The notes under the pieces were generated by a model. It saw only the letters and a list, made by a program, of their open reading frames with translations. It was not told the origin of the DNA and did no database searches. Positions 5,746 to 63,465 of a stretch of 64,000 nt of DNA are shown one piece after another; positions within the stretch are counted from its first letter, which is position 1; the number at the start of each line of letters is the position of its first letter. The position numbers were made by a program, and so were the translations under genes. The stretch is from an uncultured Anaerolineales bacterium (GTDB taxonomy: Bacteria; Chloroflexota; Anaerolineae; Anaerolineales; UBA6663), in contig CAYZRP010000006.1 in the NCBI GenBank assembly GCA_964480865.1, positions 4,064-68,063 on the forward strand, read 5' to 3'.

Positions 5746-5774
5746 TTGACATCCACCGTCATTGGCCCTATCTT
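5746..5774 (+). promoter_or_regulatory. sigma70-like promoter of sRNA copy A
   Basis: TTGACA (5746-5751), a 17-nt spacer, then TATCTT (5769-5774). The conserved transcript block starts 7 nt downstream. Confidence 0.6.
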
Positions 5775-5780
5775 GAACCC

Positions 5781-5960
5781 CAACAACATCGATTGCCGGG
5801 CTCCCCACAACCACACCTCTCCGGGTTTTCGCTGCGCCGTGGCCCAACGGTCTGAAATGCGCGGCGACAGGATGGCAACTCATAACCCGGAGGTCGTAGG
5901 TTCGAATCCTGCCCCCGCTACTGAAAAGGCCGTGATCGATTGCGATCACGGCCTTTATAT
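5781..5960 (+). ncRNA. unclassified small RNA with tRNA-fMet 3'-half tail, copy A
   Basis: One of four aligned paralogues. The 3' part CTCATAACCCGGAGGTCGTAGGTTCGAATCCTGCCCCCGCTA is an initiator-tRNA 3' half (T-arm at 5896-5912). No 5' acceptor strand is present. It has its own promoter and terminator. Confidence 0.7.
5928..5960 (+). terminator. intrinsic terminator of sRNA copy A
   Basis: GGCCGTGATCG / CGATCACGGCC forms an 11-bp stem with loop ATTG, followed by TTTATATT. Confidence 0.7.
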
Positions 5961-5996
5961 TGCCACTGGCGCCGCGGAGAGACCTGGAATGGACTC

Positions 5997-7025
5997 TCAA
6001 TTGGCGAATTGAAAAGTCCAGAGAAAATCGGTCAAAGCCCACGTCTGTTCCTCAGTCAGGATCGGCCCCCAGAACGGCATCCCGGTCCCCATGCCGCCGC
6101 GGATGATCTTGCCCTGAAGACGAGCCGGGCTGAGGCCAAGCATGTGCTTGGCATCGGTGAAATCGGTCGGCGGCATCGTCATGTGCCCGAACATGGCCTG
6201 CACCGCGTCATTGCGGGCCGTCAGCGCCGGCGCCGCGATGCCATCTCCGCTACCCGTGTCGCCATGGCAGACGGCGCAGTTGTTGGCATACAGCGCTCGT
6301 CCCTCTTCGACGCGCTCCGGCGTCGTCTGGGCCTTCCAGAGGTACGCGACCACGTCCCACAGCGCTAAGTCGGAGACGGCGTACAGTGCATCTTCCTTCC
6401 GCAGGCGTTGCCAGATCTGCGCCGGGCTTTGTGAGCGCCAGGTAATTGGTGACTCAAAAGGCCAGGGGATCGAGGCTGCCAGCGCCTCGCCGCGTGAAAC
6501 CGAAGGACGGGCTGCGGGCAGGATCGCGGCCGGTGTTTGGACGGACTCATCCAGGTCGATGCCGAGTTGGGCGTAGAGGGGTGGCTCTGGCGGTGGTGGG
6601 CTGGCCGAGGACGTCTCTCCGTCCTCCGTGACCTCGATCGTCCCGCGCATGCGCCAATGCCCCATCCCGCACCAACGCGTGCAGTAGTACGTGTACCGCC
6701 CGGGCCGCTCGAAGACGAGCATCGTCTCCATCGGCGTGTTCGGCTTGAGTTCGATCTCGGGCCAGTCCATCTGGCCGACGGCGAAGCCGTGAGTCATGTC
6801 GTCCGAGACGAGCCGAAGACGCAGTGGCTCGCCCACCGTGGCGGTCAGGCCCGCGGACGACCACCCGCCCGCCTCGGCGATCCGGGCATGGACCTCGACG
6901 ACCTGCGCCCGGTCAAGCGCGTAGAGGGTCAGCGGGATGGTGATCGCCGCGACCACCGCCGCGGTGGCCAGGCCGTGTGCTCGCGTCAGGCGACGCGAAG
7001 AGAACAGCAACCCTTGAGTCGTCAC
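5997..7025 (-). CDS. CuA-type cupredoxin domain fused to a C-terminal cytochrome c domain (cytochrome oxidase subunit II-like, orphan)
   Basis: N-terminal TM helix. CuA ligands are present: ..MTHGF.. and YYCTRWCGMGHWRM (C-x3-C-x3-H-x2-M). A Pro-rich linker leads to the heme motif CAVCH. No subunit I gene is adjacent. Confidence 0.75.
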   Translation of the reverse strand: MTTQGLLFSSRRLTRAHGLATAAVVAAITIPLTLYALDRAQVVEVHARIAEAGGWSSAGLTATVGEPLRLRLVSDDMTHGFAVGQMDWPEIELKPNTPMETMLVFERPGRYTYYCTRWCGMGHWRMRGTIEVTEDGETSSASPPPPEPPLYAQLGIDLDESVQTPAAILPAARPSVSRGEALAASIPWPFESPITWRSQSPAQIWQRLRKEDALYAVSDLALWDVVAYLWKAQTTPERVEEGRALYANNCAVCHGDTGSGDGIAAPALTARNDAVQAMFGHMTMPPTDFTDAKHMLGLSPARLQGKIIRGGMGTGMPFWGPILTEEQTWALTDFLWTFQFAN

Positions 7026-7034
7026 GATCGATCC

Positions 7035-7484
7035 TCAGGGCAAGTTAGACGGGCCATAACGCGAGTAGGTGCCGTCGACATAGGCGCGGATGTCCTTCAG
7101 CGATTTGCCTTCCCTCAACAAACGCATGGCGTCCTGAGTGATGTCCACACAGATGCCGCAGCCCAGCGCATGTCCATCAAACGAGAGCGCGCCGGACGCC
7201 TCGGTTCCGGCGATGTAGCAATCGTAATTGCTCTTGTGCCCGATCGGGCCGCAGCCGCAGTAGCAGGGCAGCGCTCGCAGCGTGTCCGCATTGACGGCCG
7301 CGAACCGGTAGGCCTGGCTCACGGTGATGGCCGCCGATTGAACCTCCTCAGGCATATCGCCCATCGCGGCCATCGCGAGCATGTCGTGATCGCTGCCGGC
7401 TGTAGAGACCGGTGCGTTCGAACAACCGGCCGCAACGAAGCCGACCAGACTCAGCATCACAACGATGGACAGGGGGATACGCAT
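7035..7484 (-). CDS. PCYCGC-motif lipoprotein (putative metal-binding)
   Basis: Signal peptide with lipobox (VAAGC). The literal PCYCGCGP motif is present, plus GCGIC. Confidence 0.75.
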   Translation of the reverse strand: MRIPLSIVVMLSLVGFVAAGCSNAPVSTAGSDHDMLAMAAMGDMPEEVQSAAITVSQAYRFAAVNADTLRALPCYCGCGPIGHKSNYDCYIAGTEASGALSFDGHALGCGICVDITQDAMRLLREGKSLKDIRAYVDGTYSRYGPSNLP

Positions 7485-7510
7485 CGGCTTTACCCTCAGG
7501 GCAATGGTGG

Positions 7511-8008
7511 TTACGGCAGCCAGTTGGACAGAATCGTCACGGACTGAATGGATCCGGCGCCGTTGTTGTTGGCAATGTGCACGCGGAAGTTGTGCTTGCC
7601 GCCCATGTCGCCATGCATCATGAATGACACCGAAAGGGTGGTGCTCTCACCTGGCTTCAAGGACATCGACCCGATCGTCGGCGTGGGCGGGCAACAGCCT
7701 TCGACAACCTCGACGTACGGCGTTTCGGTGAAGGTCAGGGGCTGATCGCCGACGTTGGTCAACGTGAAGTCGACCTTCACGGTCTTGCCGAGTTGGACCA
7801 CACCGAGCTCAACTAGCTCGCGATCGACGCGCAGCCGCGGCGATCCGCTGACCTCGATGGCCGCGGCGGGTGCAGCCCGACCCGCTGTGAGAAAGTACAC
7901 GGCCAGCACCAGGAGCCCGGCCGCCACAATGAGCAGTGTGATGGGCCAGGGTGAACGGCCCGTCAGACCCTGCGGGCGACGGCTGCGAATGTGACGAAGC
8001 TGGCTCAT
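7511..8008 (-). CDS. DUF1573-like membrane-anchored beta-sandwich protein with Met/His-rich tail
   Basis: ATG at 8008 preceded by GAGGAG. One TM helix. FTLTNVGDQPL is a DUF1573-like motif. MMHGDMGGKH lies near the C-terminus. The upstream 154 aa of track ORF 7511..8470 are rejected. Confidence 0.65.
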   Translation of the reverse strand: MSQLRHIRSRRPQGLTGRSPWPITLLIVAAGLLVLAVYFLTAGRAAPAAAIEVSGSPRLRVDRELVELGVVQLGKTVKVDFTLTNVGDQPLTFTETPYVEVVEGCCPPTPTIGSMSLKPGESTTLSVSFMMHGDMGGKHNFRVHIANNNGAGSIQSVTILSNWLP

Positions 8009-8730: not shown

Positions 8731-10434
8731 TCAAGTCGGCAAGTGGATGTCGATCGTCGTGCCCTGACCGGGCGAGGCGTGGACCTCGAGTTGAGCGCCA
8801 ATAAGGTCGGCCCGTTCGTGCATGCCCATGAGCCCGAAGTGCCCGTCCTGGCTCAAGCTGCTCAACCGCTCCGGTGGGGTGAAGCCCTGGCCGTCGTCGG
8901 CGATGTGGAGATGAAGCGCCCGATCCGTGAACGTCGCCCGGACCTGGATCGCGTGAGCGTGGGCATGTCGCGCGGCGTTGGCCAGGGCTTCCTGAACGAT
9001 CCGGTACAAACCGATCTCCTGAGCCGCCGCGAGCCGCTTCACCGGCCCGTCTACCGCGTAGGCCACCGGAATGCCGCTGGCTGTCTCAACATCGCGAGCC
9101 AGCATTTCGATCGCGGGCAGCAAGCCAAGGTCTTCGAGATAGATTGGGCGCATCGCACGGATGACGCGTCGAATGTCGGCGATGAGCGTCGAGGTCATCG
9201 AGCGCACCTCTTCGAGCCTGGCCCGCGTGGCGGGTGTGGCCTGGGCCGCGGCGCGTTGGGCCAGTTGAGCGCGCTGGTCGAGCGCGATCAGCGACTGCAC
9301 GGTATCGTCGTGAAGCTCGCGCGCCAGCCGCCGGCGCTCCTCCTCCTGTCCCGCCGTCATCGCCCCGAGGTAACCGCGCAAACCGGCCTGCGCCTGCTGC
9401 ACTTTGGCCGCCATGCGCGCCAGTTCGGCCTGAAGCCGCTGGATCTCGGTGATGCCTCCAACAGGTCGCTCGATCGCGGCGAAGTTCCCCTGGCCCAGGT
9501 CTGCCGCCTGACGCTCGAGCGCGCGTAGCGGCTGGACGATCTGACGCAGCCCAAAGGCCAGCACGACCAACGCCAGGATGATGGCGGGGATCAGGATCAG
9601 CGGCGCGATGAGCGAGCTCCTGAGGAGCGGCCCCTCGACCTGATCCCAGGGTTCTTCGGTCAGCAATGCCCAGGGCGTCCCCGAAACCGGGGCGTATGCC
9701 ACCACGTGCTCCTGCCCGTTTTCGCCCGGCAGAAACTGTGTGCCGCTGACGCCGCGCAAGGCATCGGCCACCCCCGGATGTTCCATCAGCGGGTCTTCCG
9801 ATAGGAGTTCGCCCTGCTTGAAGAGGAGGTTGCCCTGCGCCTCGACCAGGACCCACGACAGGCTCATGGTCATGCCCATGTCAGAGTCAAGAGCCAGGCC
9901 GCCGCGCACGAGGCCCTCCGGCGCAAAGGCGCCGACCACGAGGCGTTCGGCGTCGATACGAGTCGCCATCAAGACGCGCCGCAGGCCATCCGCATCCGGG
10001 AAGGACGCTGTCACGAAGGTCGGCGCTTCGGCCGGCCATTTGGCGAGAAGGCTCTGAAGGGGGCGGCTCGCCCAGGTTGCCGTGTCGCCGCTGGCCTCGA
10101 TCACAGTTCCATCCGACGTCAGCACGGCCACGCCGCCCTCGAAGCCGGCGGTCGTGCTTCCCAGCGTGGTCAACGACACGCGATTGTTTGGCGCTCTCAG
10201 AACCTGAGCCAGGCCTTCGAGCAGTTGCCGTCGATCGGTGACCTGCGCGGCGATGGCGGCTGCCGACGACTGGATCGAGCGCGCGTCACGCTCGGCGACC
10301 ATGGCGCGCATGGCCTGTTGATGGACCCACTGGCTGCCAAGCGCTACAGCGACGAGCGCGGTGGTCAACGGCAGGACGACGAACAGGAAGAACTGGCTGG
10401 TCAGGCCCTGACGCCAACCGATCCAGCGTCTCAT
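8731..10434 (-). CDS. sensor histidine kinase (NarL-partner, HisKA_3 type)
   Basis: Two TM helices flank an extracytoplasmic domain. H-box ARELHDDTVQSL. ATPase boxes DDGQGF and GLMGMHERA. Confidence 0.85.
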   Translation of the reverse strand: MRRWIGWRQGLTSQFFLFVVLPLTTALVAVALGSQWVHQQAMRAMVAERDARSIQSSAAAIAAQVTDRRQLLEGLAQVLRAPNNRVSLTTLGSTTAGFEGGVAVLTSDGTVIEASGDTATWASRPLQSLLAKWPAEAPTFVTASFPDADGLRRVLMATRIDAERLVVGAFAPEGLVRGGLALDSDMGMTMSLSWVLVEAQGNLLFKQGELLSEDPLMEHPGVADALRGVSGTQFLPGENGQEHVVAYAPVSGTPWALLTEEPWDQVEGPLLRSSLIAPLILIPAIILALVVLAFGLRQIVQPLRALERQAADLGQGNFAAIERPVGGITEIQRLQAELARMAAKVQQAQAGLRGYLGAMTAGQEEERRRLARELHDDTVQSLIALDQRAQLAQRAAAQATPATRARLEEVRSMTSTLIADIRRVIRAMRPIYLEDLGLLPAIEMLARDVETASGIPVAYAVDGPVKRLAAAQEIGLYRIVQEALANAARHAHAHAIQVRATFTDRALHLHIADDGQGFTPPERLSSLSQDGHFGLMGMHERADLIGAQLEVHASPGQGTTIDIHLPT

Positions 10435-18192: not shown

Positions 18193-18297
18193 TAGACCCC
18201 CCGGCCTGTACGCCGACTCGATCTGTCAGCTTGTCCGATGTCTCTTTTTCGCCAACGCTCCTAGGGTTGGGGGAGGTCTGTATCCCCAAGGAGGTTC

Positions 18298-18741
18298 GTG
18301 ATGACGTACCGGAAGCTGGCGCTTGCCCTCTTGATCAATGCCGTGATCATGTATCTGGTCATGTACGTGATGATCGACAAACTGGAGTCCTTCTACCTCA
18401 ACATCAACAACGTCTACATGACGGTGATGATGGTGGCGCCGATGCTCATCGTCATGCTGCTCCTCATGCGCAGCATGTATCCGAACCCGCGCCTGAACAC
18501 CGGCCTGATCGCCACAGCCGCGCTGCTCTTTTTGGGGTGCTTTTTCTTGACCCGCCAGCAATGGCCGGTGGGCGACGTCCAGTTCCTGCGATCGATGATC
18601 CCACATCACTCCGGTGCGATCTTGATGTGCGGCCAGGCTCAGATCACCGATCCCGAGATCAAAACCTTGTGCGGTCAGATCATCGAGTCGCAGCAATCGG
18701 AGATCGATCAGATGCGAGCAATCCTGGATCGCCTGCGCTAG
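18298..18741 (+). CDS. DUF305 family protein
   Basis: TM-rich N-terminus followed by LRSMIPHHSGAILMC..IIESQQSEIDQM, typical of DUF305. Confidence 0.75.
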   Translation: MMTYRKLALALLINAVIMYLVMYVMIDKLESFYLNINNVYMTVMMVAPMLIVMLLLMRSMYPNPRLNTGLIATAALLFLGCFFLTRQQWPVGDVQFLRSMIPHHSGAILMCGQAQITDPEIKTLCGQIIESQQSEIDQMRAILDRLR

Positions 18742-37086: not shown

Positions 37087-37107
37087 AGTGAAATAATATT
37101 ACAAATA

Positions 37108-37859: not shown

Positions 37860-37871
37860 GGAGAAGAGAAC

Positions 37872-39005: not shown

Positions 39006-39090
39006 GGAGGACAGTCACAATAGACACGAATTCACGGCGAATGGGCGCGAGGGACGCGTGGCGATGGTCCCAGGTCTCGGGTATGTGATT

Positions 39091-39176: not shown

Positions 39177-39230
39177 CTTGTTCGTTCTCCTGACATTATC
39201 CCAGGTCATGCATTAGAGCTACTTACCATT

Positions 39231-39305: not shown

Positions 39306-39311
39306 CTTGAA

Positions 39312-39345
39312 AGGCCTGGATCTTGAAGAGATCCGGGCCTTTTTG
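39312..39345 (+). terminator. intrinsic terminator after R2 (homologous to copy B terminator)
   Basis: GGCCTGGATCT / AGATCCGGGCC forms an 11-bp stem with one G-U pair, followed by TTTTTGTTTG. Confidence 0.6.
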
Positions 39346-41823: not shown

Positions 41824-43053
41824 CTACGCTGATGAGAGTCGACGCCGGAGGAGATCGCGCACGGCCGATGTCGGAGCGGACTCCAGGGCAGCGGCTTTGA
41901 AACGTCGCGCTGTGTCAACGTCGCCGGTTCGGCGGTGCAAGTCCGCCAGAACTGCCAGCCACATGTAGTTGCCTGCCAGCCACGCAGGGGGTTCGAAACC
42001 TTTGAGGACCTCGAGGCCGGCGGCCGGCCCACACCACTCGGCGATAGCCACCGCCCGGTTGAGGCGATGTAACGCCGATGAAGTCAGGTGCTCGAGAAGT
42101 GCATAGCATTCCGCGATGCGATCCCAACGTGTCTCAGCATAGCTGGCGGCCAGACAATGTTCCGCAGCGATCGCGGCCTCGGCATGGTAGCGCGAGAAGT
42201 GGTCGCCTTGCGCGGACCGGGCCAGCCAGGTCATCCCGGCCTGGATGCGATCGGGTTCCCAGAGCGAACGGTCCTGCTCTTCCAGAAGCAGCAGCCCGCC
42301 AGATGCGTCCTGGCGCGCGGAGAGCCTCGCCCTGTGAAAGTGCATCAGGGACATCAACGCAAACATCTCGGGTGTGCGGCCGACGGGATGCTCGGCCAAC
42401 AGCGTTCCAAGCCGCAGCGCCTCGTCACACAACTCGCGTCGAATCGATTGCACCTGATGAGCGGAGAGGTAGCCTTCGGTGAACAGGAGATACAGAACCT
42501 GCAGCACGGCGGGAAGACGTCGGGCGTGTGGCTCGCTATTCAGCGCGAGCGGCAGACCTCTGTGTTCGCGCAGCCAGGCCCGCCCCCGGCTGTAGCGTTT
42601 GTAGACGTTGGCCTCGCTCAAGAATAATCTCAACCCGATCTCTCGCACGTCGAAGCCGCAAAGGATCTTGAGCGCAAGGACGAGCTGAGACTCGACCGGG
42701 ATGGCTTCGTCACAACAGACGAAGAGCATGCGAAGGAGATCGTCGCCGACGGCGCTGATCGGGAGATCATCCTCGATGACCTCAGGCTCGACGTTTTCCG
42801 CCAGGATGCGCTGTCGTCGAGCCTGTTGCCGAAGTTCTCCGATCACGCGGTTGTAGGCAACCCGGTAGAGCCAGGCCGACGGATTGTCCGGTTCGCCGGT
42901 CCGCGTCCAGGTCTCGAGAGCAGCGAGGAGCGCCGATTGGACGGCGTCTTCGACAGAGTCCAGATGGACGAGGCCGACCCGGCCCACGAGTATGGCCACC
43001 AGGCGGCCATACTCGTGGCGGAAGAAGTGCTCGACGAGCGGGGCGCCGGTCAA
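41824..43053 (-). CDS. ECF sigma factor with long C-terminal helical-repeat extension (ECF42-like)
   Basis: Sigma region 2 (..AVQSALLAALETW..PSAWLYRVAYNRVIGELR) and region 4, followed by about 220 aa of TPR-like extension. A 4-nt overlap links it to the upstream YCII gene. Confidence 0.8.
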   Translation of the reverse strand: MTGAPLVEHFFRHEYGRLVAILVGRVGLVHLDSVEDAVQSALLAALETWTRTGEPDNPSAWLYRVAYNRVIGELRQQARRQRILAENVEPEVIEDDLPISAVGDDLLRMLFVCCDEAIPVESQLVLALKILCGFDVREIGLRLFLSEANVYKRYSRGRAWLREHRGLPLALNSEPHARRLPAVLQVLYLLFTEGYLSAHQVQSIRRELCDEALRLGTLLAEHPVGRTPEMFALMSLMHFHRARLSARQDASGGLLLLEEQDRSLWEPDRIQAGMTWLARSAQGDHFSRYHAEAAIAAEHCLAASYAETRWDRIAECYALLEHLTSSALHRLNRAVAIAEWCGPAAGLEVLKGFEPPAWLAGNYMWLAVLADLHRRTGDVDTARRFKAAALESAPTSAVRDLLRRRLSSA

Positions 43054-43403
43054 AGGGCCGCGAACTCCCGGATCTCAAGGCTGGCGCCAGGCGCGATCAC
43101 GCCTGGGCACTGCCGCGCCACATCGATCGCCTCCTCGATCGTGGCGGCGGAGAGGATCATGTAGCCGCCCACCACTTCTTTGACCTCCACGAAGGGGCCA
43201 TCGCTCACCCCTTCAGGCGTGACCACGCGCGCGGCCTCGGTCAACTTGCCGCCCAAATCGACGATATTCGCCTGGAACCTCTCGCGCCAGGCGTTGAAGC
43301 GCGCGTACATCTCTTCCATTTGAGCCGGGGAGGGCATGGCGCCTACGGCTTGCGGATCAGGCTGGCCGGGTTGGCTGCGGCGGATGCAAAGGTACTTGGG
43401 CAT
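43050..43403 (-). CDS. YCII/DGPF-domain protein
   Basis: ATG at 43403. ..VSDGPFVEVKEVVGGYMIL.. is the DGPF signature. Confidence 0.75.
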   Translation of the reverse strand: MPKYLCIRRSQPGQPDPQAVGAMPSPAQMEEMYARFNAWRERFQANIVDLGGKLTEAARVVTPEGVSDGPFVEVKEVVGGYMILSAATIEEAIDVARQCPGVIAPGASLEIREFAAL

Positions 43404-43653
43404 GGTGGGTCCTTTTCTCGATCGGATGGATCGCCCTGACAACCCTATGACGCGCGACAGGCCCGACCTTGGACACTTGGGAGCGCCCACATATCGCCCT
43501 GACAGGATGATCGTCCACCGTTCGGGTGAGAAACGTCAGTGTAACCCGAAGTCTGATCGCGGGCATCCTAGTTAGGGCCTGACCCGCGCAGCATGGCTCT
43601 CGTTGCCAACCGTGCCTGGAGCAGACGTGCGTACTCCTTCTTTGTCCCACTTC

Positions 43654-45228: not shown

Positions 45229-45887
45229 GCGCGCAACCGCTGCGGATCGTCCTCGTCGACGACCACCAGATCCTGCGGGACGGCATCCGGGTGCTGCTCG
45301 AGGGTGAGCCCGGCGTTCGAGTGATCGGCGAGTGCGGCTCGGGCGTCGAGGCGCTTGAGTTGTGCGCGCGCGAGCAGCCCGACCTTGTCGTCCTCGACCT
45401 GAGCCTGCCCGACATGAGCGGGCTCGACGTCCTGCATCAACTCCAGGAGAAACAGCCGGCCGTGCGCGTGGTGGTGCTGTCGATGCACACCCAGCGCGAG
45501 TTCGTCCTGCAGGCCCTGGCCGGTGGCTGCGCGGCCTACGTGCCCAAGGCCACGGCCCACACCAGCCTGGTCGAGGCGATCCAGGCGGTGCGGCGCGGCG
45601 AGCGCTTCCTGCACCCCAAGGTCGCGGCCGTCCTGCTCGAGTCCTTTGGCGGCGACATGAGCGAAGTCCAGCAGTTCCAGGCGCTGTCGGACCGCGAGCG
45701 GGACGTGCTGCAGATGACGGCCTGGGGTTTCAACAGCCGCGAGATCGGCGAAAAGCTGGCCCTCAGCCCCAAGACCATCGAGACCTATCGGCAGCGCGCC
45801 ATGGAGAAACTCGGTCTTGAGCACCGGACGGATCTGATCCGCTTTGCCCTGCGAGCCGGCATTCTGGGCGAGCACGGCCCGGGCTGA
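45225..45887 (+). CDS. response regulator, NarL/LuxR family
   Basis: Receiver domain plus LuxR HTH (LSDRERDVLQMTAWGFNSREIG). Overlaps the kinase stop by 4 nt. Confidence 0.85.
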   Translation: MSAQPLRIVLVDDHQILRDGIRVLLEGEPGVRVIGECGSGVEALELCAREQPDLVVLDLSLPDMSGLDVLHQLQEKQPAVRVVVLSMHTQREFVLQALAGGCAAYVPKATAHTSLVEAIQAVRRGERFLHPKVAAVLLESFGGDMSEVQQFQALSDRERDVLQMTAWGFNSREIGEKLALSPKTIETYRQRAMEKLGLEHRTDLIRFALRAGILGEHGPG

Positions 45888-45995
45888 TCCCAACGGGTCC
45901 ACTCATTGCGCAACCCGAAGGAATCAGCGCGGGAAGCGGGTGCTCCGCCTGTCCCTTCCCGGCATGGCTGTGCAGTTCCGCCGGGTCGGGAAAAT

Positions 45996-46025
45996 CCGGA
46001 CAGGATTTCAGGTTTCGCCGGACAG
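45996..46025 (+). promoter_or_regulatory. direct repeat CCGGACAG x2 (22-bp phasing) upstream of rdhA
   Basis: CCGGACAG at 45996-46003 and 46018-46025. The first copy overlaps the inverted repeat AAATCC-N5-GGATTT. The sites lie about 100-125 nt upstream of the rdhA ATG. Confidence 0.3.
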
Positions 46026-46122
46026 AGAATCGGGTCTTTCCGCTCAGAGCGTTGCGTCGAAACCGTTACAGTCGTATCGACCCCTGGTCACAACGTATTC
46101 ATCATACCCAAGGAGGGAGTCG

Positions 46123-47544
46123 ATGAGCGACACAGACAAGGCCAAGCGGAAGTTTGGCCGACGAGAGTTCTTCAAGATGGCCGGCCTTGGCACCGGCGCG
46201 GCGGTGGCCGCGTCGTCGCTGCAACCGGTCAAGACGGCCAACGCCTCGGCCGCGCCGTACACGGATCCCGCTGGCCGGCCGGCCCGCCCGTGGTGGGTCA
46301 AGACGGTCGATCAGCCCACGACCGAGATCGACTGGGCCAAGATGAAGCGCTACAACGAGCGCTACGTCCAGGAAGAGGGCGCGGGCACGGTGCGCGGCGG
46401 CGGGTTTGCCGGTTATCTCGGCAAGGAAGAAGCCGAACGCCTGGTCAAGATGGGCGACGACAAGAACCTGCAACGGATCCGCGACAACGTCGACGGCTAC
46501 ACGCTCAAGGACTTCGCCCTGAGCGCCGGTCAGTCGGCCACAAGCGTCGGGCGCAGCTTCCTGGGCCCGCAGAAGGCCCAGACCCCCGAAGAGCGCGGCG
46601 TTCCGGCCTGGAAGGGCACGCCGGCCGAAGCGGCCAAGATGCTCCGCGCGGCGATGCGGCACATGGGCGCCTCGACGATCGGTTTCGTCGAGCTCGATGA
46701 CAACACCCGCAAGCTGATCTACTCGATCGATCCCGACGGGCACATCATGGAGTTCACCGACGACCCGGTGGCCTCCGAGACCGAGACGCATCGCTACATC
46801 CCCAATAGCTGCAAGTACGCGATCGTCTACACGGTCCAGATGTCGGAAGAGGCGATGAAGCGCTCGCCCACGATGACGGCTTCGCAGACGACGACCGGCG
46901 CGTATTCGCGCGGCGCGCAGATCGCGGCCGGCACCCAGGAGTTCCTGCGCTCGCTCGGATATCAGTGCCTGAGCGAGGCGTCGACAAACGCACTGGGCAT
47001 CGCCCCGGCCTTCGGTGTGCTCGCCGGCCTGGGCGAGATGTCGCGCATGAACCGCATGATCTCGCCCGAGTTCGGGCCCATGGTGCGCGTCTTCAAGATG
47101 CTCACCGATCTGCCGGTCGAGGTCGACAAGCCGATCAACGCCGGGATCATGGAGTTCTGCAAGTCTTGCAAGAAGTGCGCTGAGGCGTGCCCGTCGGGCG
47201 CCCTGAGCTTTGAGAGCGAGCCGTATTGGGAAACCAAGGGCGGCTGGAACAACCCGGGTCACAAGGCCTGGTTCGAAGACGCCGTCAAGTGCCGCACGTA
47301 CTGGGTCTCAGAGGCCGGCACGAACTGCGGCATCTGTTTCGGGGTGTGCCCGTTCTCCAAGAAGGACAAGGCCTGGATCCACGACTGGGTCAAGGCCGGC
47401 ACAAGCAGCGCTCCGTTCCTCGCGTCCTTCTTCCGCAGCATGGACGATGCCTTTGGGTACGGCGTCCAGAAGAGCGGCGAGGAATGGTGGAACCTGGATC
47501 AACCGGAATACGGCGTTGACAGTTCGATTGTCGTGAAGGGGTGA
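46123..47544 (+). CDS. rdhA: reductive dehalogenase catalytic subunit
   Basis: ATG at 46123 preceded by AAGGAGGGAG. Tat signal RREFFKMAGLG. Fe-S motifs CKSCKKCAEACP and C-x13-CGICFGVCP. Confidence 0.85.
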   Translation: MSDTDKAKRKFGRREFFKMAGLGTGAAVAASSLQPVKTANASAAPYTDPAGRPARPWWVKTVDQPTTEIDWAKMKRYNERYVQEEGAGTVRGGGFAGYLGKEEAERLVKMGDDKNLQRIRDNVDGYTLKDFALSAGQSATSVGRSFLGPQKAQTPEERGVPAWKGTPAEAAKMLRAAMRHMGASTIGFVELDDNTRKLIYSIDPDGHIMEFTDDPVASETETHRYIPNSCKYAIVYTVQMSEEAMKRSPTMTASQTTTGAYSRGAQIAAGTQEFLRSLGYQCLSEASTNALGIAPAFGVLAGLGEMSRMNRMISPEFGPMVRVFKMLTDLPVEVDKPINAGIMEFCKSCKKCAEACPSGALSFESEPYWETKGGWNNPGHKAWFEDAVKCRTYWVSEAGTNCGICFGVCPFSKKDKAWIHDWVKAGTSSAPFLASFFRSMDDAFGYGVQKSGEEWWNLDQPEYGVDSSIVVKG

Positions 47545-47548
47545 GGCC

Positions 47549-47767
47549 ATGAAGTCCTATACGCTTCAAATCGCAAAGCGCCCGTGGTACGAATGGGCGT
47601 TGTGGGTGGTGTGGTTCCTGGTCGAGATCTTTATCCTGCAGAACGCGATCGCCAGCGGCGCCGAGCTTGAGCCGCGCGCGGCCTCGATCTTCTGGATGAC
47701 CTTCATCGTCCTGTTGTTGGGCGGTGGCATCGTCTGGTTCGTGCGACGCGCGCGCCTGGCGAAGTAA
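47549..47767 (+). CDS. rdhB: reductive dehalogenase membrane anchor-like protein
   Basis: 72 aa with two hydrophobic helices. Starts 4 nt after the rdhA stop. The position and size are typical of RdhB. Confidence 0.65.
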   Translation: MKSYTLQIAKRPWYEWALWVVWFLVEIFILQNAIASGAELEPRAASIFWMTFIVLLLGGGIVWFVRRARLAK

Positions 47768-47797
47768 TTCCGCTCGAAGGCAAGCGTCTGATATCTG

Positions 47798-47823
47798 GAG
47801 AGGAAGGGCGATCCCTTCCTCTC
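47798..47823 (+). terminator. perfect 11-bp hairpin after rdhB (attenuator/stabiliser or weak terminator)
   Basis: GAGAGGAAGGG-cgat-CCCTTCCTCTC followed by CTTTC. It lies between rdhB and rdhC. Confidence 0.45.
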
Positions 47824-47838
47824 CTTTCGGCTACAGAG

Positions 47839-49071
47839 ATGACATCGATCCCGCCGACAGCCCCCGAGACCGATCGCGCCCCCGCCGGGCCGCGCGCCGA
47901 AAAATCGCGCCGCCAGCGCTGGCTGGTGCTCGCCACCCTGCTCGCCGTCGTGGCGGCCTGGGTCTATGGATGGCTGACGGCGGGCTTCGACGTGGCGCCC
48001 GAGGCCCTGGCGGCCATCGCCGGCGCCACCCGGGTTGAGGCTCGCGGTTCGATCTACTACGGCTACGACGGCGCCGGGCAGTTGGTCGGCTATGCGGGGA
48101 AGGGCGAGGCGCCGGGCTACGGCGGCCCGATCACGCTTGTCGTCGGGCTGGATCTCGCCGGCGCCGTGACCGAGGTGCGGGTCGTTCAGCAGCGCGAGAC
48201 ACCCAGCTTCTTCAGGCTGCTGGATCGCGAGGGCTACTACGACCAGTTCCAGGGTCAGCCGTACGACGCGAACTTCCAGCTCGGCCAGGGCATCGACGGA
48301 GTCAGCGGCGCGACCTTCAGCGCCGATGGCGTCGCCGCGGCGACGCGGCAGGCCATCCGGTCCGTGGCAGCCGAGGGTCTCGGGCAATCGCTGCCCGCCG
48401 ACGATGTCCCGATCCGTTTCGGCATCCCAGAAGTCGTCCTCATCCTGCTGTACGTTGTCGGCTACATCGGACACCGCCTGCGCAGCGCCCTCTGGCGCAC
48501 ACGTGTGCGCTGGGCGACGCTCCTGACCGGCCTTGTTGTCGTCGGCTTCATCTACACCATGCCGTTCACGATCACGCAGGTCGTATCGCTTCTCAGCGGC
48601 TACTGGCCCGACTGGCGCACCAACCTGTACTGGTACCTGCTCCTGGGCGGCATCGCCTTCGTCACGACGGTCGACGCCAAGAACCCGTACTGCAGCTGGT
48701 TCTGCCCGTTCGGAGCCTTTCAAGAGTGCCTGGGCACGATCTCGGGCGCGAAGCTGTATCGTCCCAGACAATGGGCTTCTGCGCTCACCTGGCTCCAGCG
48801 CGGGTTGGCCGGTGTGGCCATCGTGCTGGGGCTGGCGCTACGCCGACCGGGCGTGGCCGGGTATGAGCCCTTTGGCACGCTCTTCGATCTGCGCGGCACG
48901 ACCGTGCAGTGGGCCTTCCTGCTGCTCGTCGTGCTCGCCAGTCTTGTGATCTACCGACCGTTCTGCAACTACCTGTGCCCGATCGACCCCGTGGTGGAGT
49001 TCATCGCCGAGGTCCGGCGACAGGTCCGGGAAGGATGGCGCCGATGGCAGAGCCGCCACGCAAAGATCTGA
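47839..49071 (+). CDS. rdhC: RdhC/PceC-like membrane flavoprotein (FMN-binding domain + NosR/NapH-type polytopic Cys-motif domain)
   Basis: FMN_bind motif GIDGVSGATFS, about six TM helices, and the motifs CSWFCPFG and CNYLCP. Confidence 0.75.
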   Translation: MTSIPPTAPETDRAPAGPRAEKSRRQRWLVLATLLAVVAAWVYGWLTAGFDVAPEALAAIAGATRVEARGSIYYGYDGAGQLVGYAGKGEAPGYGGPITLVVGLDLAGAVTEVRVVQQRETPSFFRLLDREGYYDQFQGQPYDANFQLGQGIDGVSGATFSADGVAAATRQAIRSVAAEGLGQSLPADDVPIRFGIPEVVLILLYVVGYIGHRLRSALWRTRVRWATLLTGLVVVGFIYTMPFTITQVVSLLSGYWPDWRTNLYWYLLLGGIAFVTTVDAKNPYCSWFCPFGAFQECLGTISGAKLYRPRQWASALTWLQRGLAGVAIVLGLALRRPGVAGYEPFGTLFDLRGTTVQWAFLLLVVLASLVIYRPFCNYLCPIDPVVEFIAEVRRQVREGWRRWQSRHAKI

Positions 49072-49283
49072 AGCGGCCGTTCTTCGTCGCCTGGCTGGCG
49101 TTCTGCCTGGTGCTCGTGGTCCTGGTCTGGGTCGACAACCTCGGACCGGGCGAGGTTGCAGCGCCGCAGCCGGGCTTCGTGCGCAGCACCGCGCCGGTCA
49201 GCGTCGGCACGGTGACGCCAACTGTCAGCGTCGTGGCCACACCCGGCGAGGCGCCCACTCAAGATGTCACCGATGATCAGTGA
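49035..49283 (+). CDS. hypothetical small membrane protein
   Basis: ATG at 49035, one TM helix, and overlaps with both neighbouring genes. Weak call. Confidence 0.3.
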   Translation: MAPMAEPPRKDLKRPFFVAWLAFCLVLVVLVWVDNLGPGEVAAPQPGFVRSTAPVSVGTVTPTVSVVATPGEAPTQDVTDDQ

Positions 49284-50295
49284 GATAGCCCGTGTGAACA
49301 CTCATCCTGCCCGGGGTATCCGAGGCGTCTCGCGCCGCCGTTTTCTGAGGATCGTGGCGTTTGGCGGCCTCGCCGCCGGCCTCGGTGCCGCGACGGTCCG
49401 CCGACTGGCGCCGACAGCTGCGCGGGCCAGCCGGGTGCTGATGGGCACCGTGGTCAATCTGGCGATCGTCAGCGACGATGAACGCCGGGCAACCGAGGGC
49501 CTGACCGCGGCCTTCGCCGAGATGGAACGCCTGATTGCGCTGTTTGACCACCGCCGCCCGGAGAGCACGCTGGGGCGCCTCAACGCGTCAGGGTCGTTGA
49601 GCGAGCCGCCGGCCGAGTTTGTCGAGGTCCTGGCGCATGCGCTGGCCCTCAGTGCGTTGACCGACGGCGCTTTCGATGTCACAGTCCAACCCGTGATCGA
49701 CGCCTACCGCGACGGCATGACGATGGTTGACAGCCTGCGTGAGAGGATCGACTATCGACTGGTCGCGCTGAGCGATCGCGAGGTGCGCCTCGGCCGTCCC
49801 GGCATGGCGCTGACGTTCGATGGCCTCGCCAAGGGCCGCGTCGTCGACGGCGCGGTGGGCGCGTTGCGCTCGCTGGGCTTCGAGCGAGTCCTTGTCGAGG
49901 CCGGCGGCGACCTGTTTGCGTCGCGCACCGGCATCGATGGCCAACCCTGGCGCATCGGCATCCGTGACCCGCATGGCGCAGCCGACAATGCCGTCCTCAC
50001 ATTCGGGGCGGCCGATCTTGCCGTGGCGACGTCCGGCGACTATCTCAACGCCTTCACGATCGATCACGCGCTGCACCACATCATCGACCCGCGAACCCTG
50101 CGGTCGCCGGCGGAACTATCCAGCGCGACGGCGCTTGCGCCCACGGCCATGGCCGCCGATGCCCTGAGCACGGCCCTGCTCGTGCTCGGCGTCGATGCGG
50201 GCCTTGCCCTGGCGGAGTCGTTGCCGGGTGTAGAGGCCTTGCTGATCACCAAGGACGACCGACGTGTCGCCACGTCGGGCTTTCCGACTGCGTGA
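49264..50295 (+). CDS. apbE: FAD:protein FMN transferase (ApbE family) with Tat-type signal
   Basis: RRRFLRIVAFGGLAAGLG signal. ApbE-like core (..AFDVTVQP..ATSGDYLNAF..HIIDPRT). Confidence 0.8.
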   Translation: MSPMISEIARVNTHPARGIRGVSRRRFLRIVAFGGLAAGLGAATVRRLAPTAARASRVLMGTVVNLAIVSDDERRATEGLTAAFAEMERLIALFDHRRPESTLGRLNASGSLSEPPAEFVEVLAHALALSALTDGAFDVTVQPVIDAYRDGMTMVDSLRERIDYRLVALSDREVRLGRPGMALTFDGLAKGRVVDGAVGALRSLGFERVLVEAGGDLFASRTGIDGQPWRIGIRDPHGAADNAVLTFGAADLAVATSGDYLNAFTIDHALHHIIDPRTLRSPAELSSATALAPTAMAADALSTALLVLGVDAGLALAESLPGVEALLITKDDRRVATSGFPTA

Positions 50296-51445: not shown

Positions 51446-51745
51446 CCGGTCCGTGTTGGCCCACCCGTAGGGCGCGGTCGCACCACCCCAATCGTCTGGA
51501 ACCGTCCCGCTGACGCCGGGCGCGATCCGGTGACACGCTCGGCGCGACGGTAAACCTCGCCTCACGGCCTCCAACCGCTGTCTCTCGAGGCGCTTGCTCC
51601 TCAGGCGTCGGGCGCATCGCCGCGGTTGCCGGCTCTCCGCAGACGCACAACCGAGGTAAGGATTTCGGGCATCACCCCGTCTATACGCCAGAACCCGCAG
51701 GCCTGTTCGGGTGGCAACGCCTGCCTGCTGACGCTGGAGGTTGCG

Positions 51746-53470
51746 ATGGACATGATCCCCGAGCGCTATTCGGTCGCCATCATCGGTTCGGGCATGGGTG
51801 GCTCGACGCTGGCCAGCGTCCTCGCCCGGCAGGGGCTTTCGGTGATCGTCTTCGAGGGCGGGGTGCATCCACGCTTCACCATCGGCGAGTCCATGATCCT
51901 CGAGACGTCCGAGGCCATGCGGGCATTGGCCGAGTTCTACGACGTGCCTGAACTGGCCTACTACTCGTCCGAGAATTTCTACACCGACATCGGCACCTCG
52001 CACGGCGTCAAGCGCCACTTCAGCTTCGTCCATCACACGCCGGGCCGGCCCGCCACGGCCGAGCGCAGCCTGCAGGCCGTCATCCCGCGGATGCCGTACG
52101 GGCACGAGATCCACATCAACCGGCAGGACTCCGACTACTTCCTGACCTCGGTGGCCGTCTCGTACGGCGCCGACGTGCGCCAGGGCACATTGATCCAGGA
52201 TGTGCGCATCGGGCCGGACGGCGTCGAGATCGTGACCCAGAAGGGCGAGGTCTTCCACGCCGACTACGTCATCGATGCCGGCGGGATGAAGTCGCTCCTG
52301 GCTCAGCAGTTCGGGTGGCGTCATCGGGACATGCTGACCCACTCGCGCACGATCTTCACGCACATGATCGACGTGCCGTGCTTCACCGAGGTCTCGGCCG
52401 GGATGCGCGCCTCCGGCCATCCGTTTCGATTATCGGAGGGCACGCTGCATCATCTTTTCCGCGGGGGCTGGCTGTGGGTGATCCCGTTCAACAATCATCC
52501 GGCCGCCACGAACCCGCTGTGCAGCGTCGGCCTGCAGCTGGATCCGCGGCTGCATCCGCAACGACCCGACCTGTCGCCGGAGGCCGAGTTCCTGGACTTC
52601 ATTAAGGATTACCCCGATGTGCAGGCCCAGTTCGCGGGAGCCCGGGCGGTGCGCGACTGGATGCGCATCGATCGGCTGCAGTATTCGGCTCACCACATCG
52701 TTGGCGATCGCTGCGCGCTGCTGGCGCACGCCGCCGGGTTCGTCGATCCGCTGTACTCGAAAGGCCTGTACGTCACCCATGCCAGCCTGTTCCTGTTGGC
52801 GGACCTGCTGATCAAGGCGCACCGGACCGGGGATTATTCGGCAGCGGCGTTCGCGCCGCTCGAGCGCATGACCCTCGATTACGTCGGCATGCACGACAGG
52901 CTGGTCGCCAGTTCATTCAAGTCGTGGCGCAACTTCAAACTCTGGAACGCCTATGAGGTCCTCTGGCTGTTGGGGGCGTACCTGGAATACCTGCGCCTGA
53001 TCATCAACCGCTACCGCGCGAAGGGCGACCGCGGTCGTTACCTGGAGCTGATGCGGTCGCACCGGCTCGTCGGGGGCGGGTTCGACAAGTTCTTCGACGT
53101 GCAGGAGAAGATCGATGCGATCCTGGACGCCGTCGATCCCGATGACGAAGCCGCTGTCGATCGCGCGGTCGCGGCGATCAAGGCCGAGTTCGCGCGCTTT
53201 CCGTGGATCCCGACGACGATCCGCGACCTCCTGGAGGGCAAGAACCATCTGCCCGACAACAAGCTGCGCCTCAACCTGCTCAACCCGAAGACGGGCTTCT
53301 TCGGCGATGGCCCTTACCGCGAACACTTCTTCGGCGAGGCTACGCCGGTCGAGCTCCTGGCGCGGGCCGGGCAAGACCAGCTGCGCTACTCGGTTCCCGC
53401 GCTGAGAAACCGGCGTCGGCGCCGTGCCCGATTGGCCTGGCAGAGCCCCTCGGAGCGCCGACATGTTTGA
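51746..53470 (+). CDS. flavin-dependent halogenase
   Basis: ATG at 51746 preceded by GGAGG. GxGxxG (IIGSGMGG), WxWxIP (GGWLWVIPF) and FxxPxxSxG (FVDPLYSKG) motifs are all present. Confidence 0.8.
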
Positions 53471-61873: not shown

Positions 61874-61900
61874 ATCTAGACGTCTTTGGTAAGCCGCCTC

Positions 61901-62635
61901 TTACTTCGCCGCGAAAATCGTCAGGGCCTCGGCCGGCGTCAGGCCTTCGCGCTCCAGACGGCGCTTGAGCCTGACGCGAGCGTCGTGGAGCAGCTTATAG
62001 AGCGCATTTCGTTCGGTGCCCATGCGGCGCGCCACTTCCTCAAGCGGGAGCCCCTGGATCGCCAGGGCCACCATCGCCTGCCGCTGGCGATCGGTCAGTT
62101 CTTCCTGAAGCATGCGCTCCACCCGGGTGAGCAAATCGTTGCGTTCGGTGAGCGTCTCGGGGCCGGCTGCCGGGTCCGCAGCCCAGTGCGGCTCCTCGGC
62201 CGAGGGCGTGCTCTCCATCTGCGCCTCGAGCGAGACATCCTGCCACTTACGACGTCGCAGTTCTGTCAGGGCGATGCGAACGGCGATTTTGTGGACCCAG
62301 GTGGTGAACTGGCTGCGACCTTCGAAAGAGTCAAGGCGTTCGAGGACGCGCACCAACGTGTTCTGCGCGACTTCGTCGGCAAGCGGGCTGAACGCCGGAT
62401 CGTCGGGTTTGAGCCAGGTGGAGAGGGCGTAGGGCAGGCCGCTCAGGACGATCGCGCGCAAATCGGCGAGCGCAGCATCCCGGGTCGGTTCGGCCCCGCG
62501 AAGGTCGTGCAGCCATTCGTCGTTTGAGCGATGAACCACGCTGGCATTGTAGTCGGCCCGCGCAACACAGTGACCGTTCCGCAGACGTTCGTACAACGCT
62601 CGCCGATGAGATAAGGGATCGTCAGCCCATGGCAT
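61901..62635 (-). CDS. ECF (sigma-70 family) sigma factor
   Basis: Region 2 (..FTTWVHKIAVRIALTELRRR) and region 4 (LTDRQRQAMVALAIQGLPLEEVARRMGTERNALYKLLHDARVRLK). The N-terminal start is uncertain. Confidence 0.8.
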   Translation of the reverse strand: MPWADDPLSHRRALYERLRNGHCVARADYNASVVHRSNDEWLHDLRGAEPTRDAALADLRAIVLSGLPYALSTWLKPDDPAFSPLADEVAQNTLVRVLERLDSFEGRSQFTTWVHKIAVRIALTELRRRKWQDVSLEAQMESTPSAEEPHWAADPAAGPETLTERNDLLTRVERMLQEELTDRQRQAMVALAIQGLPLEEVARRMGTERNALYKLLHDARVRLKRRLEREGLTPAEALTIFAAK

Positions 62636-62681
62636 CCAGAGGGGATTCGGCTATGTCGGCCGATCTCCTGAGGAACGACTC

Positions 62682-63110
62682 ATGTCGACCCTGACTTTGA
62701 AGGCGAACACGACCCATCACATTCTGTCCGGTGCGTTGGCCGGGCTGATCGGTGGCGCGGTCTTCGGAGTGCTGATGACGGGCATGCTGCCGAGGGTCGG
62801 AAGGCTCGTGGGGCAGGAGAAAAACATCGTTGGTCTGACCGTGCATCTCGCAATCAGCGCGATCATCGACGTGATCCATGCCGTAGCTGCGGCTCGCTTG
62901 CTCGCGGGCCGACTCCCGGCCGTCCTGACGGGCATGGCCAACGGCGGGATATGGTGGGCATTGGGCGTTGTCGTGCTCATGCCGCTCGGGCTGGGGATGC
63001 CGCAGATGGTCTTCGCCCTGGGCATGCCCCAGTGGATGAGTCTGATGGGCCATCTGATCTTCGGCATCGTTTCCGCCCTGGCGTTGGCGCCCATTCAGAA
63101 GCGGATCTGA
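62682..63110 (+). CDS. hypothetical membrane protein
   Basis: 142 aa with four TM helices, divergent from the sigma operon. Confidence 0.5.
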   Translation: MSTLTLKANTTHHILSGALAGLIGGAVFGVLMTGMLPRVGRLVGQEKNIVGLTVHLAISAIIDVIHAVAAARLLAGRLPAVLTGMANGGIWWALGVVVLMPLGLGMPQMVFALGMPQWMSLMGHLIFGIVSALALAPIQKRI

Positions 63111-63250
63111 CAGATCCTGACGGGCGGGGCTGCGTCGTCGTAGGGGTCGCCGCACCCAAAGGTCCAAACGATCCTGTTGATCGGGTTTGCACGGGTTGAA
63201 CCCGAATGATCAATCCGACCTGCGGATGATCTGGACTCGCATCGACAGCG

Positions 63251-63279
63251 TTGATATATGCCCAGCCGGGCTGTACTGT
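63251..63279 (+). promoter_or_regulatory. sigma70-like promoter of sRNA copy D
   Basis: TTGATA (63251-63256), a 17-nt spacer, then TACTGT (63274-63279). Confidence 0.55.
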
Positions 63280-63285
63280 ATCTGC

Positions 63286-63465
63286 CAACAATGCACTTTG
63301 CCGGGCTCCCCATAACCCCGCCTCTCCGGGGTTTCGTCGCGCCGTGGCTCAACGGTCTGAAATGCGCGGCGACAGCATGACAACTCGTAAGCCGGGGGTG
63401 TAGGTTCGAATCCTGCCCGTGCTTCTTAAATGCCGTGATCGATTGCGATCACGGCATTCTTCTTT
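63286..63465 (+). ncRNA. unclassified small RNA with tRNA-fMet 3'-half tail, copy D (diverged)
   Basis: Collinear with copies A-C but carries many substitutions (CTCGTAA instead of CTCATAA). The T-arm GTAGGTTCGAATCCTGC is intact. The terminator is TGCCGTGATCG/CGATCACGGCA (63431-63456) followed by TTCTTCTTT. Confidence 0.6.

Follow-up and report, generated by a model that had tools for sequence, protein, structure and literature searches.

What separates the accessory modules of this locus, and does it take any part in their exchange? The 64-kb stretch of DNA analysed here (positions 4,064 to 68,063 of contig CAYZRP010000006.1, from an uncultured Anaerolineales bacterium; hereafter 'the window', with position 1 its first base) contains a short repeat, present as four units and three relics that all lie within 5746–63467, set among genes for metal resistance, phage defence, corrinoid methyltransfer, reductive dehalogenation and halogenation. 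An initial annotation had offered two readings of these repeats: arm-type junctions of an integrase-less or trans-mobilised family of elements, or a genuine family of small RNA (sRNA) genes acting as a hotspot for insertion. The latter fits better than the former, as the repeats have the footprint of a promoter plus transcript. The explanation that we favour, at a probability of about one half, is that a family of tRNA-fMet-derived sRNA genes, the core of each serving as an attachment (att)-type site, delimits a tandem array of integrase-less cassettes that resemble cis-mobilisable elements (CIMEs).

Anatomy of the repeat unit

A direct-repeat scan returned a four-member family at 5780, 33620, 35490 and 63285 (units A to D), and an nhmmer profile built from the copies placed them at 5735–5964, 33572–33808, 35445–35679 and 63240–63474 (E-values of 1e-70 to 1e-77), along with three weaker matches at 39095–39185 (R1), 39273–39352 (R2) and 39371–39399 (R3). 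All are on the plus strand, in keeping with the single orientation first noted for the four copies and their relics; R3 joins the previously listed R1 and R2. A Hamming scan with the 42-nt tRNA-like core of the unit gave no chance matches in 20 shuffled windows.

Each unit spans ~215–230 bp—somewhat more than the ~190 bp first estimated—and is built to a common plan: a TTGACA hexamer (TTGATA in D), 17 nt of spacer, a TAnnnT hexamer, a further ~7 nt, a conserved body of ~140 nt that represents the predicted RNA and, beginning 5–8 nt past the body, the hairpin and T-tract of an intrinsic terminator. In unit A (5746–5963) the −35 hexamer TTGACA occupies 5746–5751 and the −10 hexamer TATCTT 5769–5774, with the RNA body at ~5781–5920, its tRNA-like core at 5879–5920 and the hairpin of a 'T1' terminator at 5925–5956, followed by the T-tract. 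Unit B (33586–33799) has TTGACA at 33586–33591, TACAGT at 33609–33614, the core at 33720–33761 and a T1 terminator at 33765–33794; unit C (35456–35680) has TTGACA at 35456–35461, TAGTGT at 35479–35484, the core at 35589–35628 and a 'T3' terminator at ~35639–35671, with a segment 'X' (to 35734) directly 3' of it, whose counterpart recurs past R1. Unit D (63251–63467; TTGATA at 63251–63256, TACTGT at 63274–63279, T1 terminator at 63429–63458) is a diverged paralogue, 81–84% identical to A–C, and has six changes and one deletion in its core. A promoter and a terminator, as initially proposed for every copy, are therefore present by pattern in four of four, while the threshold of the promoter-prediction tool is passed only by A and B and by the 'Y' unit described below; C and D have weaker −10 hexamers.

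We refer to the 5' ~90 nt of the body as 'S', and to the 40–42 nt with which it ends, CTCATAACCCGGAGGTCGTAGGTTCGAATCCTGCCCCCGC(TA), as 'O', the tRNA-like 3' core. The latter follows an initiator tRNA from its anticodon loop (CTCATAA, with the CAU anticodon) through CCC, the variable region, the T-arm (GTAGG-TTCGAAT-CCTGC) and the 3' strand of the acceptor to the discriminator, which gives substance to the earlier suggestion of tRNA-fMet-derived tails. The core is 100% identical in A, B, the unit of a second genome (L001) and the left-hand unit of an independent contig (L007), and A, B, C and L001 have an identical 70-nt 3' stretch. Three different left arms join this same O from the anticodon loop: S, a promoter-bearing arm 'Y' seen in L007, and the tRNA-like 5' half of R2; whichever the arm, the 40–42-nt core CTCATAA...CCCCCGC(TA) is common to all of the junctions. 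The identity block common to the S, Y and tRNA-like junctions thus opens in the anticodon loop and closes with the acceptor 3' strand, the classical sublocation of tyrosine-integrase att sites in tRNA genes (Williams 2002, as cited in PMC9897764).

Mean pairwise identity among the five intact units (A, B, C, D and L001) is 27% in the upstream sequence, 42% in the spacer and 38% in the discriminator, as against 93% in the −35 hexamer, 100% at positions 1, 2 and 6 of the −10 hexamer and >90% in the body from the predicted start site onwards; the spacer measures 17 nt in five of five (16 nt in the unit of a further contig, L034). This profile is the footprint of a promoter and a selected transcript rather than of patchy protein-binding arms. 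With a promoter at a fixed distance, conservation from the predicted start and an intrinsic terminator after the body, the units look like generic bacterial sRNA genes and are probably transcribed. Terminators of three unrelated types stand at the same distance past O: T1 (A, B and D), T3 (C and R1) and 'T2' (R2 and L001); T1 displays one compensatory change, from G:C to U:A, between A and D. Single units fold better than their shuffles (z = −4.4 and −3.8), and a predicted helix of 9–11 bp pairs S (CTCCGGGTT) with O (AACCCGGAG). In unit B, one T-to-A change in S stretches this helix from 9 to 11 bp (CTCCGGGTTAT / ATAACCCGGAG; 33659–33669 / 33723–33733), taking it into the anticodon-loop bases.

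The relics lie close together on the plus strand, with three decayed cores inside 350 bp. R1 (39050–39241) comprises the 32 O-proximal nucleotides of a Y arm, a decayed O with 13 mismatches (39095–39136), a T3' terminator (39149–39174) and X', a 110-nt segment also found past unit C. R2 (39234–39343) is a decayed sequence of 72 nt with the shape of tRNA-fMet (39234–39305), followed by a T2 terminator (39309–39343); it matches the Rfam tRNA model in full (positions 1–71) at 20.0 bits, below the gathering score of 29, gives nothing with ARAGORN, and closes the C–R1 array on its right as a full pseudo-tRNA. R3 (39360–39403) is a partial core (GGCGCCCATAACCGGCGGGTCGAAGGTCCGAATC), and a homologous relic follows the unit of L001, where blastn aligns L001 4734–4848 with window 39273–39386.

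No known RNA family or mobile element accounts for the unit. ARAGORN reports no tRNA or transfer-messenger RNA (tmRNA) in the window, L001, L007 or L023–L033—and hence no intact target tRNA-fMet at either end of these arrays—and across the whole window Rfam gives no match at gathering thresholds, with only chance-level matches in E-value mode. A canonical tRNA-fMet gene is rejected, there being no ARAGORN cloverleaf and, for unit A, an alignment to RF00005 that takes two large insertions and reaches 17.3 of the 29 bits required for gathering; likewise a one- or two-piece tmRNA (no match with ARAGORN or Rfam, an fMet-like core with a CAU loop, and no apparent tag open reading frame (ORF)) and an intron-containing tRNA (both programs negative, the 62-nt insertion not being a group I intron). 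An omega-RNA or end of the IS605-family tnpB relic that precedes unit A does not fit, as the relic is on the minus strand with its 3' end near 4460; unit A lies past the tnpB 5' end in the plus orientation, and no tnpB is close to B, C or D. A simple insertion like a miniature inverted-repeat transposable element (MITE) or a short interspersed element (SINE) is also rejected: the units have no terminal inverted repeats, and the synteny breaks described below are one-sided rather than clean insertions between conserved flanks. A Pcirc-like outward promoter for element genes is at odds with the terminator past the core in every unit, and an integron, or a cluster of attC sites lacking integron-integrases (CALIN), with the lack of an integrase domain and, by eye, of RYYYAAC/GTTRRRY termini. 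In agreement with the initial annotation, no Pfam Phage_integrase, Resolvase or Recombinase domain was found in the window's called genes or, as stop-free six-frame fragments, in its larger gaps; the ~100 kb around 16 units (window, L001, L007, L023 and L034) yielded no integrase or resolvase by Pfam, and no relics of modules from integrative and conjugative elements (ICEs) or integrative and mobilisable elements (IMEs) were seen in the window.

Synteny breaks among related haplotypes

Do modules come and go at the units? The presence or absence of modules at copy boundaries, suggested at the outset as a check, was seen in three comparisons (L007, L034, and L001 against L023). The most precise is with L007, an independent European Nucleotide Archive (ENA) contig that is 99.8% identical to window 33720–37225 and spans unit C. 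Homology begins exactly where O of unit B does (33720), at an anticodon-loop base: to the left of it, L007 has an SCO1-like gene, the promoter TGGACA-17-TACAAT and the Y arm, whereas the window has S of unit B and the metal-resistance island. The last 32 nt of the Y arm also precede R1 in the window. In place of the corrinoid/MtaA genes that the window has to the right of the second breakpoint (37225), L007 carries a unit that is truncated and decayed and has a T1-like terminator. The L007 haplotype is thus without the metal island at unit B; in the sample that gave it, contig L016 (ENA ERZ22666005) holds metal-island genes 98.6% identical to, and matching, window 6190–7668, which belong either to a second strain or to an island elsewhere in that genome.

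L034 presents the end of an O, T1, a DUF4143 ATPase (86.6% identical to that of the window), a full unit, T1 and a YCII flank, the last being 96% identical to window 63609–64000 (L034 1991–2382). Between ATPase and YCII gene some 26 kb of the window are absent—the corrinoid/MtaA genes, R1–R3, the block of genes that follows them (block 4) and D—and the unit at the D-orthologous site is 84–86% identical to A and C as against 73% to D. Within the variable-loop region of its tRNA-like core it has an insertion of 15 nt (L034 1888–1902; GCGTCCGAAGGTCGT-like, a partial tandem duplication). The ATPase, a candidate defence protein of family PDC-S01, adjoins an S–O unit in three haplotypes (window 35794–37086, minus strand; L007 644–1936; L034 204–1496), and the arms beside it vary between these haplotypes, being T3–X or T1. 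Conservation of all modules and copies as a single ancestral block, which would have spoken against exchange, is contradicted by both L007 and L034.

The third comparison concerns L001 and its 95% relative L023. The one intact unit of L001, 95% identical to A, stands in an unrelated context, where its neighbours are a GH2/ABC-permease cluster and an SBP_bac_5 gene; T2 and an R3-like relic come after it. The upstream flank is common to L023 at 94%, the units are ~78% identical, the terminators differ (T2 against T1), and so do all of the downstream genes. L023 carries two co-oriented units (9286–9515 and 18218–18447), the second 8.9 kb away, around an 8.7-kb block; both are decayed, with T-arm, central hairpin and promoter hexamers broken, while L001 is intact at the orthologous site. 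As the unit (78%) is far more diverged than the flanking non-coding DNA (~94%), these alignments imply allele replacement rather than drift. An 80% relative keeps the gene block and has no unit, and L023, which reaches 9 kb further upstream than L001, holds no tRNA-fMet or integrase there.

Within every locus the O-bearing units are co-oriented (seven in the window, three in L007 and two each in L023, L034 and L001). The full units known number eight, from two lineages, and three of them are decayed (L23a, L23b and, in part, that of L034); L023 and L034 were reached only through neighbouring proteins, and exact-protein look-ups with four window proteins returned nothing, or only short contigs ending at repeats.

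The initial annotation placed the copies exactly at the borders of unrelated modules, which holds for the A–B, B–C and C–R1 intervals and not throughout: the block to the left of D is heterogeneous, and the variable region has its left edge at 4085, inside a truncated PEMT gene (3767–4085, minus strand; a Pfam PEMT fragment), rather than at copy A. Backbone synteny with relatives extends no further than this gene. L005, an 83% amino-acid relative with a full PEMT gene, aligns to window 1630–4085, and L006 to 1705–3597; they lose synteny at 4085 and 3597, respectively, and have no unit.

How the junctions may have arisen

In the explanation that we favour, the unit would be a self-contained sRNA transcription unit, driven by a sigma-70-type promoter and ended by an intrinsic terminator, and its RNA of ~140 nt a lineage-specific S domain of ~90 nt fused to the last 40–42 nt of an initiator tRNA. 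Core O would double as an att-type recombination site, such that DNA between two co-oriented O-bearing units forms an exchangeable cassette or island. Because both partners would carry a complete unit, a crossover in or beside O should leave each junction with a rebuilt unit, chimeric yet complete, and not with a bare 3' tRNA scar. The window would then be a tandem accretion array—Cu/chromate resistance, AbiE, the PDC-S01 ATPase with corrinoid methyltransferase genes, and an rdh/halogenase/ABC block—in which older events are recorded as the decayed units R1–R3. As the enzyme we favour a tRNA-fMet-specific tyrosine integrase that would act in trans and be encoded elsewhere, by an ICE or a prophage. 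What is said here of the order and direction of the exchanges, and of any cellular role of the RNA, is inference.

The A–B, B–C and C–R1 cassettes are each flanked by O-bearing units and contain cargo genes only, as expected of CIMEs. Like islands that target tRNA genes, they are bounded by direct repeats of the tRNA 3' part from the anticodon loop, with presence/absence polymorphism at the repeats, while an intact target tRNA at the array end and a recombinase gene beside the att site are both missing.

Several observations weigh against this explanation. With no integrase found, the key enzyme is hypothetical, and there is no evidence of circular cassette intermediates. The family is rare: a pattern common to all copies matches one of 185,579 species genomes (that of L001, an Anaerolineales metagenome-assembled genome (MAG)), and scans of Joint Genome Institute (JGI) metagenomes and IMG/VR gave no match. 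Copies are not always maintained, as seen from the broken T-arms, central hairpins and decayed promoters of the L023 units and, in part, of the L034 unit. The body lacks a covariation-supported RNA fold: in RNAalifold, with seven units that are few and too similar, none of 37 predicted pairs in the body is compensatory and the covariation term is +0.44; minimum-energy folds also differ between A and D. No independent contig spans the metal-to-B or block-4-to-D junctions. Composition, proposed early on as a means of telling the segments apart, sets off the small cassettes (60% GC) and fails as a sign of foreignness for the two large blocks, which at 64.6% (the metal island) and 65.6% are backbone-like (64.6%). 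Lastly, there are breakpoints at the left edge of a unit, and cases in which its entire body has been exchanged (L001/L023; L034 against D), and general homologous recombination explains these equally well.

Put in its strongest form, this last point becomes a reading of the whole locus in which units of 220–270 bp provide portable homology for RecA, and crossover between them excises, inserts or replaces the DNA in between, for example once DNA has been taken up, or when looped-out circles integrate in Campbell fashion; older integrase events would have left the tRNA-like core as a fossil. We consider it unlikely, and a serious contender all the same. It better explains the whole-allele swaps at orthologous sites (L034 against D) and the unit-edge breakpoints, such as the divergence of L001 and L023 from the left edge of the unit on; crossover between complete copies is expected to give full-length units at both junctions, no integrase need lie within ~100 kb (and none does), and gene conversion could account for the 70-nt 3' stretch that A, B, C and L001 have in identical form. 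What it accommodates poorly is that the S, Y and tRNA-like junctions have only a core of 40–42 nt in common, starting exactly at the anticodon loop, the classical integrase sublocation; forty nucleotides are marginal for RecA, and arrays of short decayed cores (R1, R3) look like att scars. On another reading, the units would not be genes at all: S and Y would be the P-arms of ordinary integrative elements targeting tRNA-fMet and each copy an attR or attL, with promoter-like hexamers that are incidental or bind arm-type proteins, and integrases lost or outside the window. S with its upstream box, O and terminator (~240 bp) has the dimensions typical of a complex attP, and an identity block from the anticodon loop to the 3' end, with an element-supplied terminator, is expected where a tRNA gene is restored. 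The L001 unit, moreover, sits where the window has the pseudo-tRNA-fMet, with T2 and the R3 flank next in line in both, and so resembles an attR at a tRNA-fMet locus, and the L023 copies decay as scars do. Yet conservation begins at the predicted start and is uniform over 140 nt, with only two hexamers at 17-nt spacing kept upstream; S is not co-inherited with the DNA on its left between L001 and L023; none of the arrays searched with ARAGORN (window, L001, L007, L023–L033) has an intact tRNA-fMet at its end; and no integrase or integrase relic was found. On this evidence P-arms seem quite improbable.

It is less credible by far that a multicopy sRNA family happens to occupy the intergenic regions of a plastic segment and has no causal role in exchange. 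Chance would allow for the intergenic position that every sRNA gene has to take, for the heterogeneity of the block left of D and for the native composition of the large blocks; it would hardly give seven co-oriented units out of seven in the window and co-orientation in four other loci, a break of synteny at units in three independent haplotype comparisons (in one, precisely where O begins), or three decayed cores clustered within 350 bp. Going in the opposite direction, the S–O and Y–O RNAs could themselves be functional parts of a cassette exchange that is integrase-free or driven by host recombinases, forming a transcribed, tRNA-fMet-derived att module that makes the DNA it flanks mobilisable; this we regard as a long shot. 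The transcript, or its tRNA-like fold, might act in targeting, in control of recombination or in countering tRNA-directed toxins, for example the neighbouring AbiEii-type nucleotidyltransferase. Analogues of such a module are attC sites and the dif sites of integrative mobile elements exploiting Xer (IMEX); here it would be built from an RNA gene.

The sRNA-gene array that we favour has relatives among known systems. Another Chloroflexi lineage has islands arranged in tandem at tRNA/tmRNA genes, of which half lack integration modules; those of Dehalococcoides are ssrA-specific, and 16 of 31 carry dsiB (PMC3146451). Like these, our locus has co-oriented direct repeats of the 3' part of a tRNA-like gene, islands in series, strain-specific cargo that includes rdhA, many islands without an integration module, and an identity block from the anticodon loop that matches a sublocation class; unlike them, it repeats not a scar of 20–45 bp but a unit of ~220 bp that is complete from promoter to terminator and includes a non-tRNA 5' domain, has no intact tRNA or tmRNA target heading the array, and lacks an integrase in any island of the 64 kb, or of ~100 kb with relatives included. 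The accretion model for CIMEs is established, and ICE/IME tandems occur in Streptococcus (PMC5704250). CIMEs there keep attL and attR without integration or transfer genes, and form arrays by site-specific accretion, mobilised by the integrase of a related element; the gene content and the array we count as likenesses, and the mobilisation as a putative one; the differences are that we see no decayed ICE or IME modules and that the att site would lie inside a separate, putatively transcribed chimeric RNA gene. Partial tRNA genes at island borders are mis-annotated as tRNAs (PMC9897764). R1–R3 are exactly of this class, from which A–D differ in being complete conserved units. In the manner of working only, integron arrays and CALINs are also alike, with co-oriented repeats of ~100–200 bp and dyad symmetry between unrelated cassettes and with an adjacent integrase optional; here there is no IntI, no R''/R' attC core can be seen by eye, the cassettes reach 27 kb and have promoters of their own, and the repeats carry promoter and terminator. 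Loci of sRNA genes are insertion hotspots for horizontally acquired DNA in their own right, the Salmonella ryeA/ryeB locus and ssrA being examples; these are single-copy core genes that receive integrase-bearing prophages. A non-coding RNA gene as landing site for foreign DNA is what our locus has in common with them, and it differs in that the RNA gene is multiplied, with one copy at each junction and a 3' half derived from tRNA-fMet.

Cargo of the array and its meaning

Pfam scans, which took in the GC3-supported genes of the window (GC3 being GC content at third codon positions), reproduce the gene order given in the initial annotation. From the left end, an araA-like gene, an aminotransferase gene, the PEMT fragment and the tnpB relic lead up to copy A. 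An ORF of 355 aa at 928–1995 (plus strand), by eye an aldolase-type backbone gene, falls outside the GC3-filtered set. The IS605-family tnpB relic (4460–5490, minus strand; OrfB_IS605 4e-13, HTH_OrfB_IS605 1.9e-12) is frameshifted into two overlapping ORFs and is the sole mobility-related relic of the window; lying outside the repeat unit, it is context. A 12/13-bp hairpin at 5668–5722, just 5' of the unit A promoter, may be the left end of the insertion sequence or a terminator.

Between A and B lies the metal-resistance island of 27.6 kb (5964–33585), in which Pfam identifies cupredoxin/cytochrome c, PCYCGC, DUF6803, multicopper oxidase, Cu P-type ATPase, DUF305, chromate transporter and cation P-type ATPase genes and three two-component systems. 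The second cassette, between B and C, holds an AbiEii/AbiEi abortive-infection toxin–antitoxin pair (33846–35428, minus strand; Pfam AbiEii 4e-44 and AbiEi_4; PADLOC 8e-95 for AbiEii and 7e-75 for AbiEi). Past C, the third (35794–39005; Pfam, PADLOC and NCBIfam) begins with the AAA_14-DUF4143 ATPase (35794–37086, minus strand), which PADLOC assigns to the candidate defence family PDC-S01 at 2.5e-102, and continues with a corrinoid (B12-binding) protein and a URO-D/MtaA-like methyltransferase; the Logan contig L002 spans window 35599–39365. Since the small cassettes adjoining units match AbiEii/AbiEi and PDC-S01, which are defence genes, the locus is also a hotspot of defence and resistance.

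Block 4 (39404–63250; 23.8 kb), between the relics and D, is heterogeneous: AraC, DUF1801, SRPBCC, an ECF sigma factor with YCII, a histidine kinase/response regulator pair, RdhA, FMN_bind/Fer4_5, ApbE and TPR are followed by Trp_halogenase, a CDP-OH transferase, AhpC, an ABC importer, Pyr_redox_2, VTT and a further ECF sigma factor (all Pfam). RdhA (PF13486) is accompanied by an FMN_bind/Fer4_5 membrane protein and ApbE at 45844–50295, and a few kb away a Trp_halogenase-family flavoprotein (51626–53470) adjoins a CDP-alcohol phosphatidyltransferase, which places genes for dehalogenation and halogenation in one block of an Anaerolineae-type genome of 64% GC. Past D, the YCII-family gene (63695–64000, plus strand; Pfam YCII 6e-8) is cut by the window end, and its flank is common to L034 and L035; relative to both, the window has an insertion of 123 nt 3' of unit D (63476–63598) with a terminator-like hairpin at 63545–63559 inside. 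YCII genes recur beside ECF sigma (DUF6596) and DUF1801 genes (window 41824–43490, 40604–40963 and 63695–64000; L034 2075–3815), and the groups in block 4 and to the right of D are possibly paralogous small modules. Measured start to start, A (5780) and B (33620) are 27,840 bp apart, and C (35490) and D (63285) 27,795 bp; an ancient duplication of a ~27.8-kb segment was considered and set aside, as the only internal repeats are non-collinear response-regulator paralogues, and the like spacings are probably coincidence.

Tandem accretion of the tRNA/tmRNA type is already known; what is new here is an att site, as we propose it, inside a multiplied tRNA-fMet-derived sRNA gene, with a unit at every junction. 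The S or Y arm together with the 42-nt core offers a sequence tag for island boundaries where integrase-based finders fail, and the units carry a warning for annotation, in that tRNA-like fragments can belong to larger conserved transcription units. They would also be a natural case of tRNA 3' halves exapted into new RNA genes, and they raise a testable question of trans-mobilisation, namely which recombinase acts on them. If our explanation is true, a poorly studied Chloroflexota (Anaerolineae-type) lineage of wastewater and bioreactor metagenomes organises accessory genes—for metal resistance, phage defence, corrinoid methyltransfer, reductive dehalogenases and halogenases—as cassettes whose borders would be formed by a tRNA-fMet-derived sRNA gene rather than by bare att scars.

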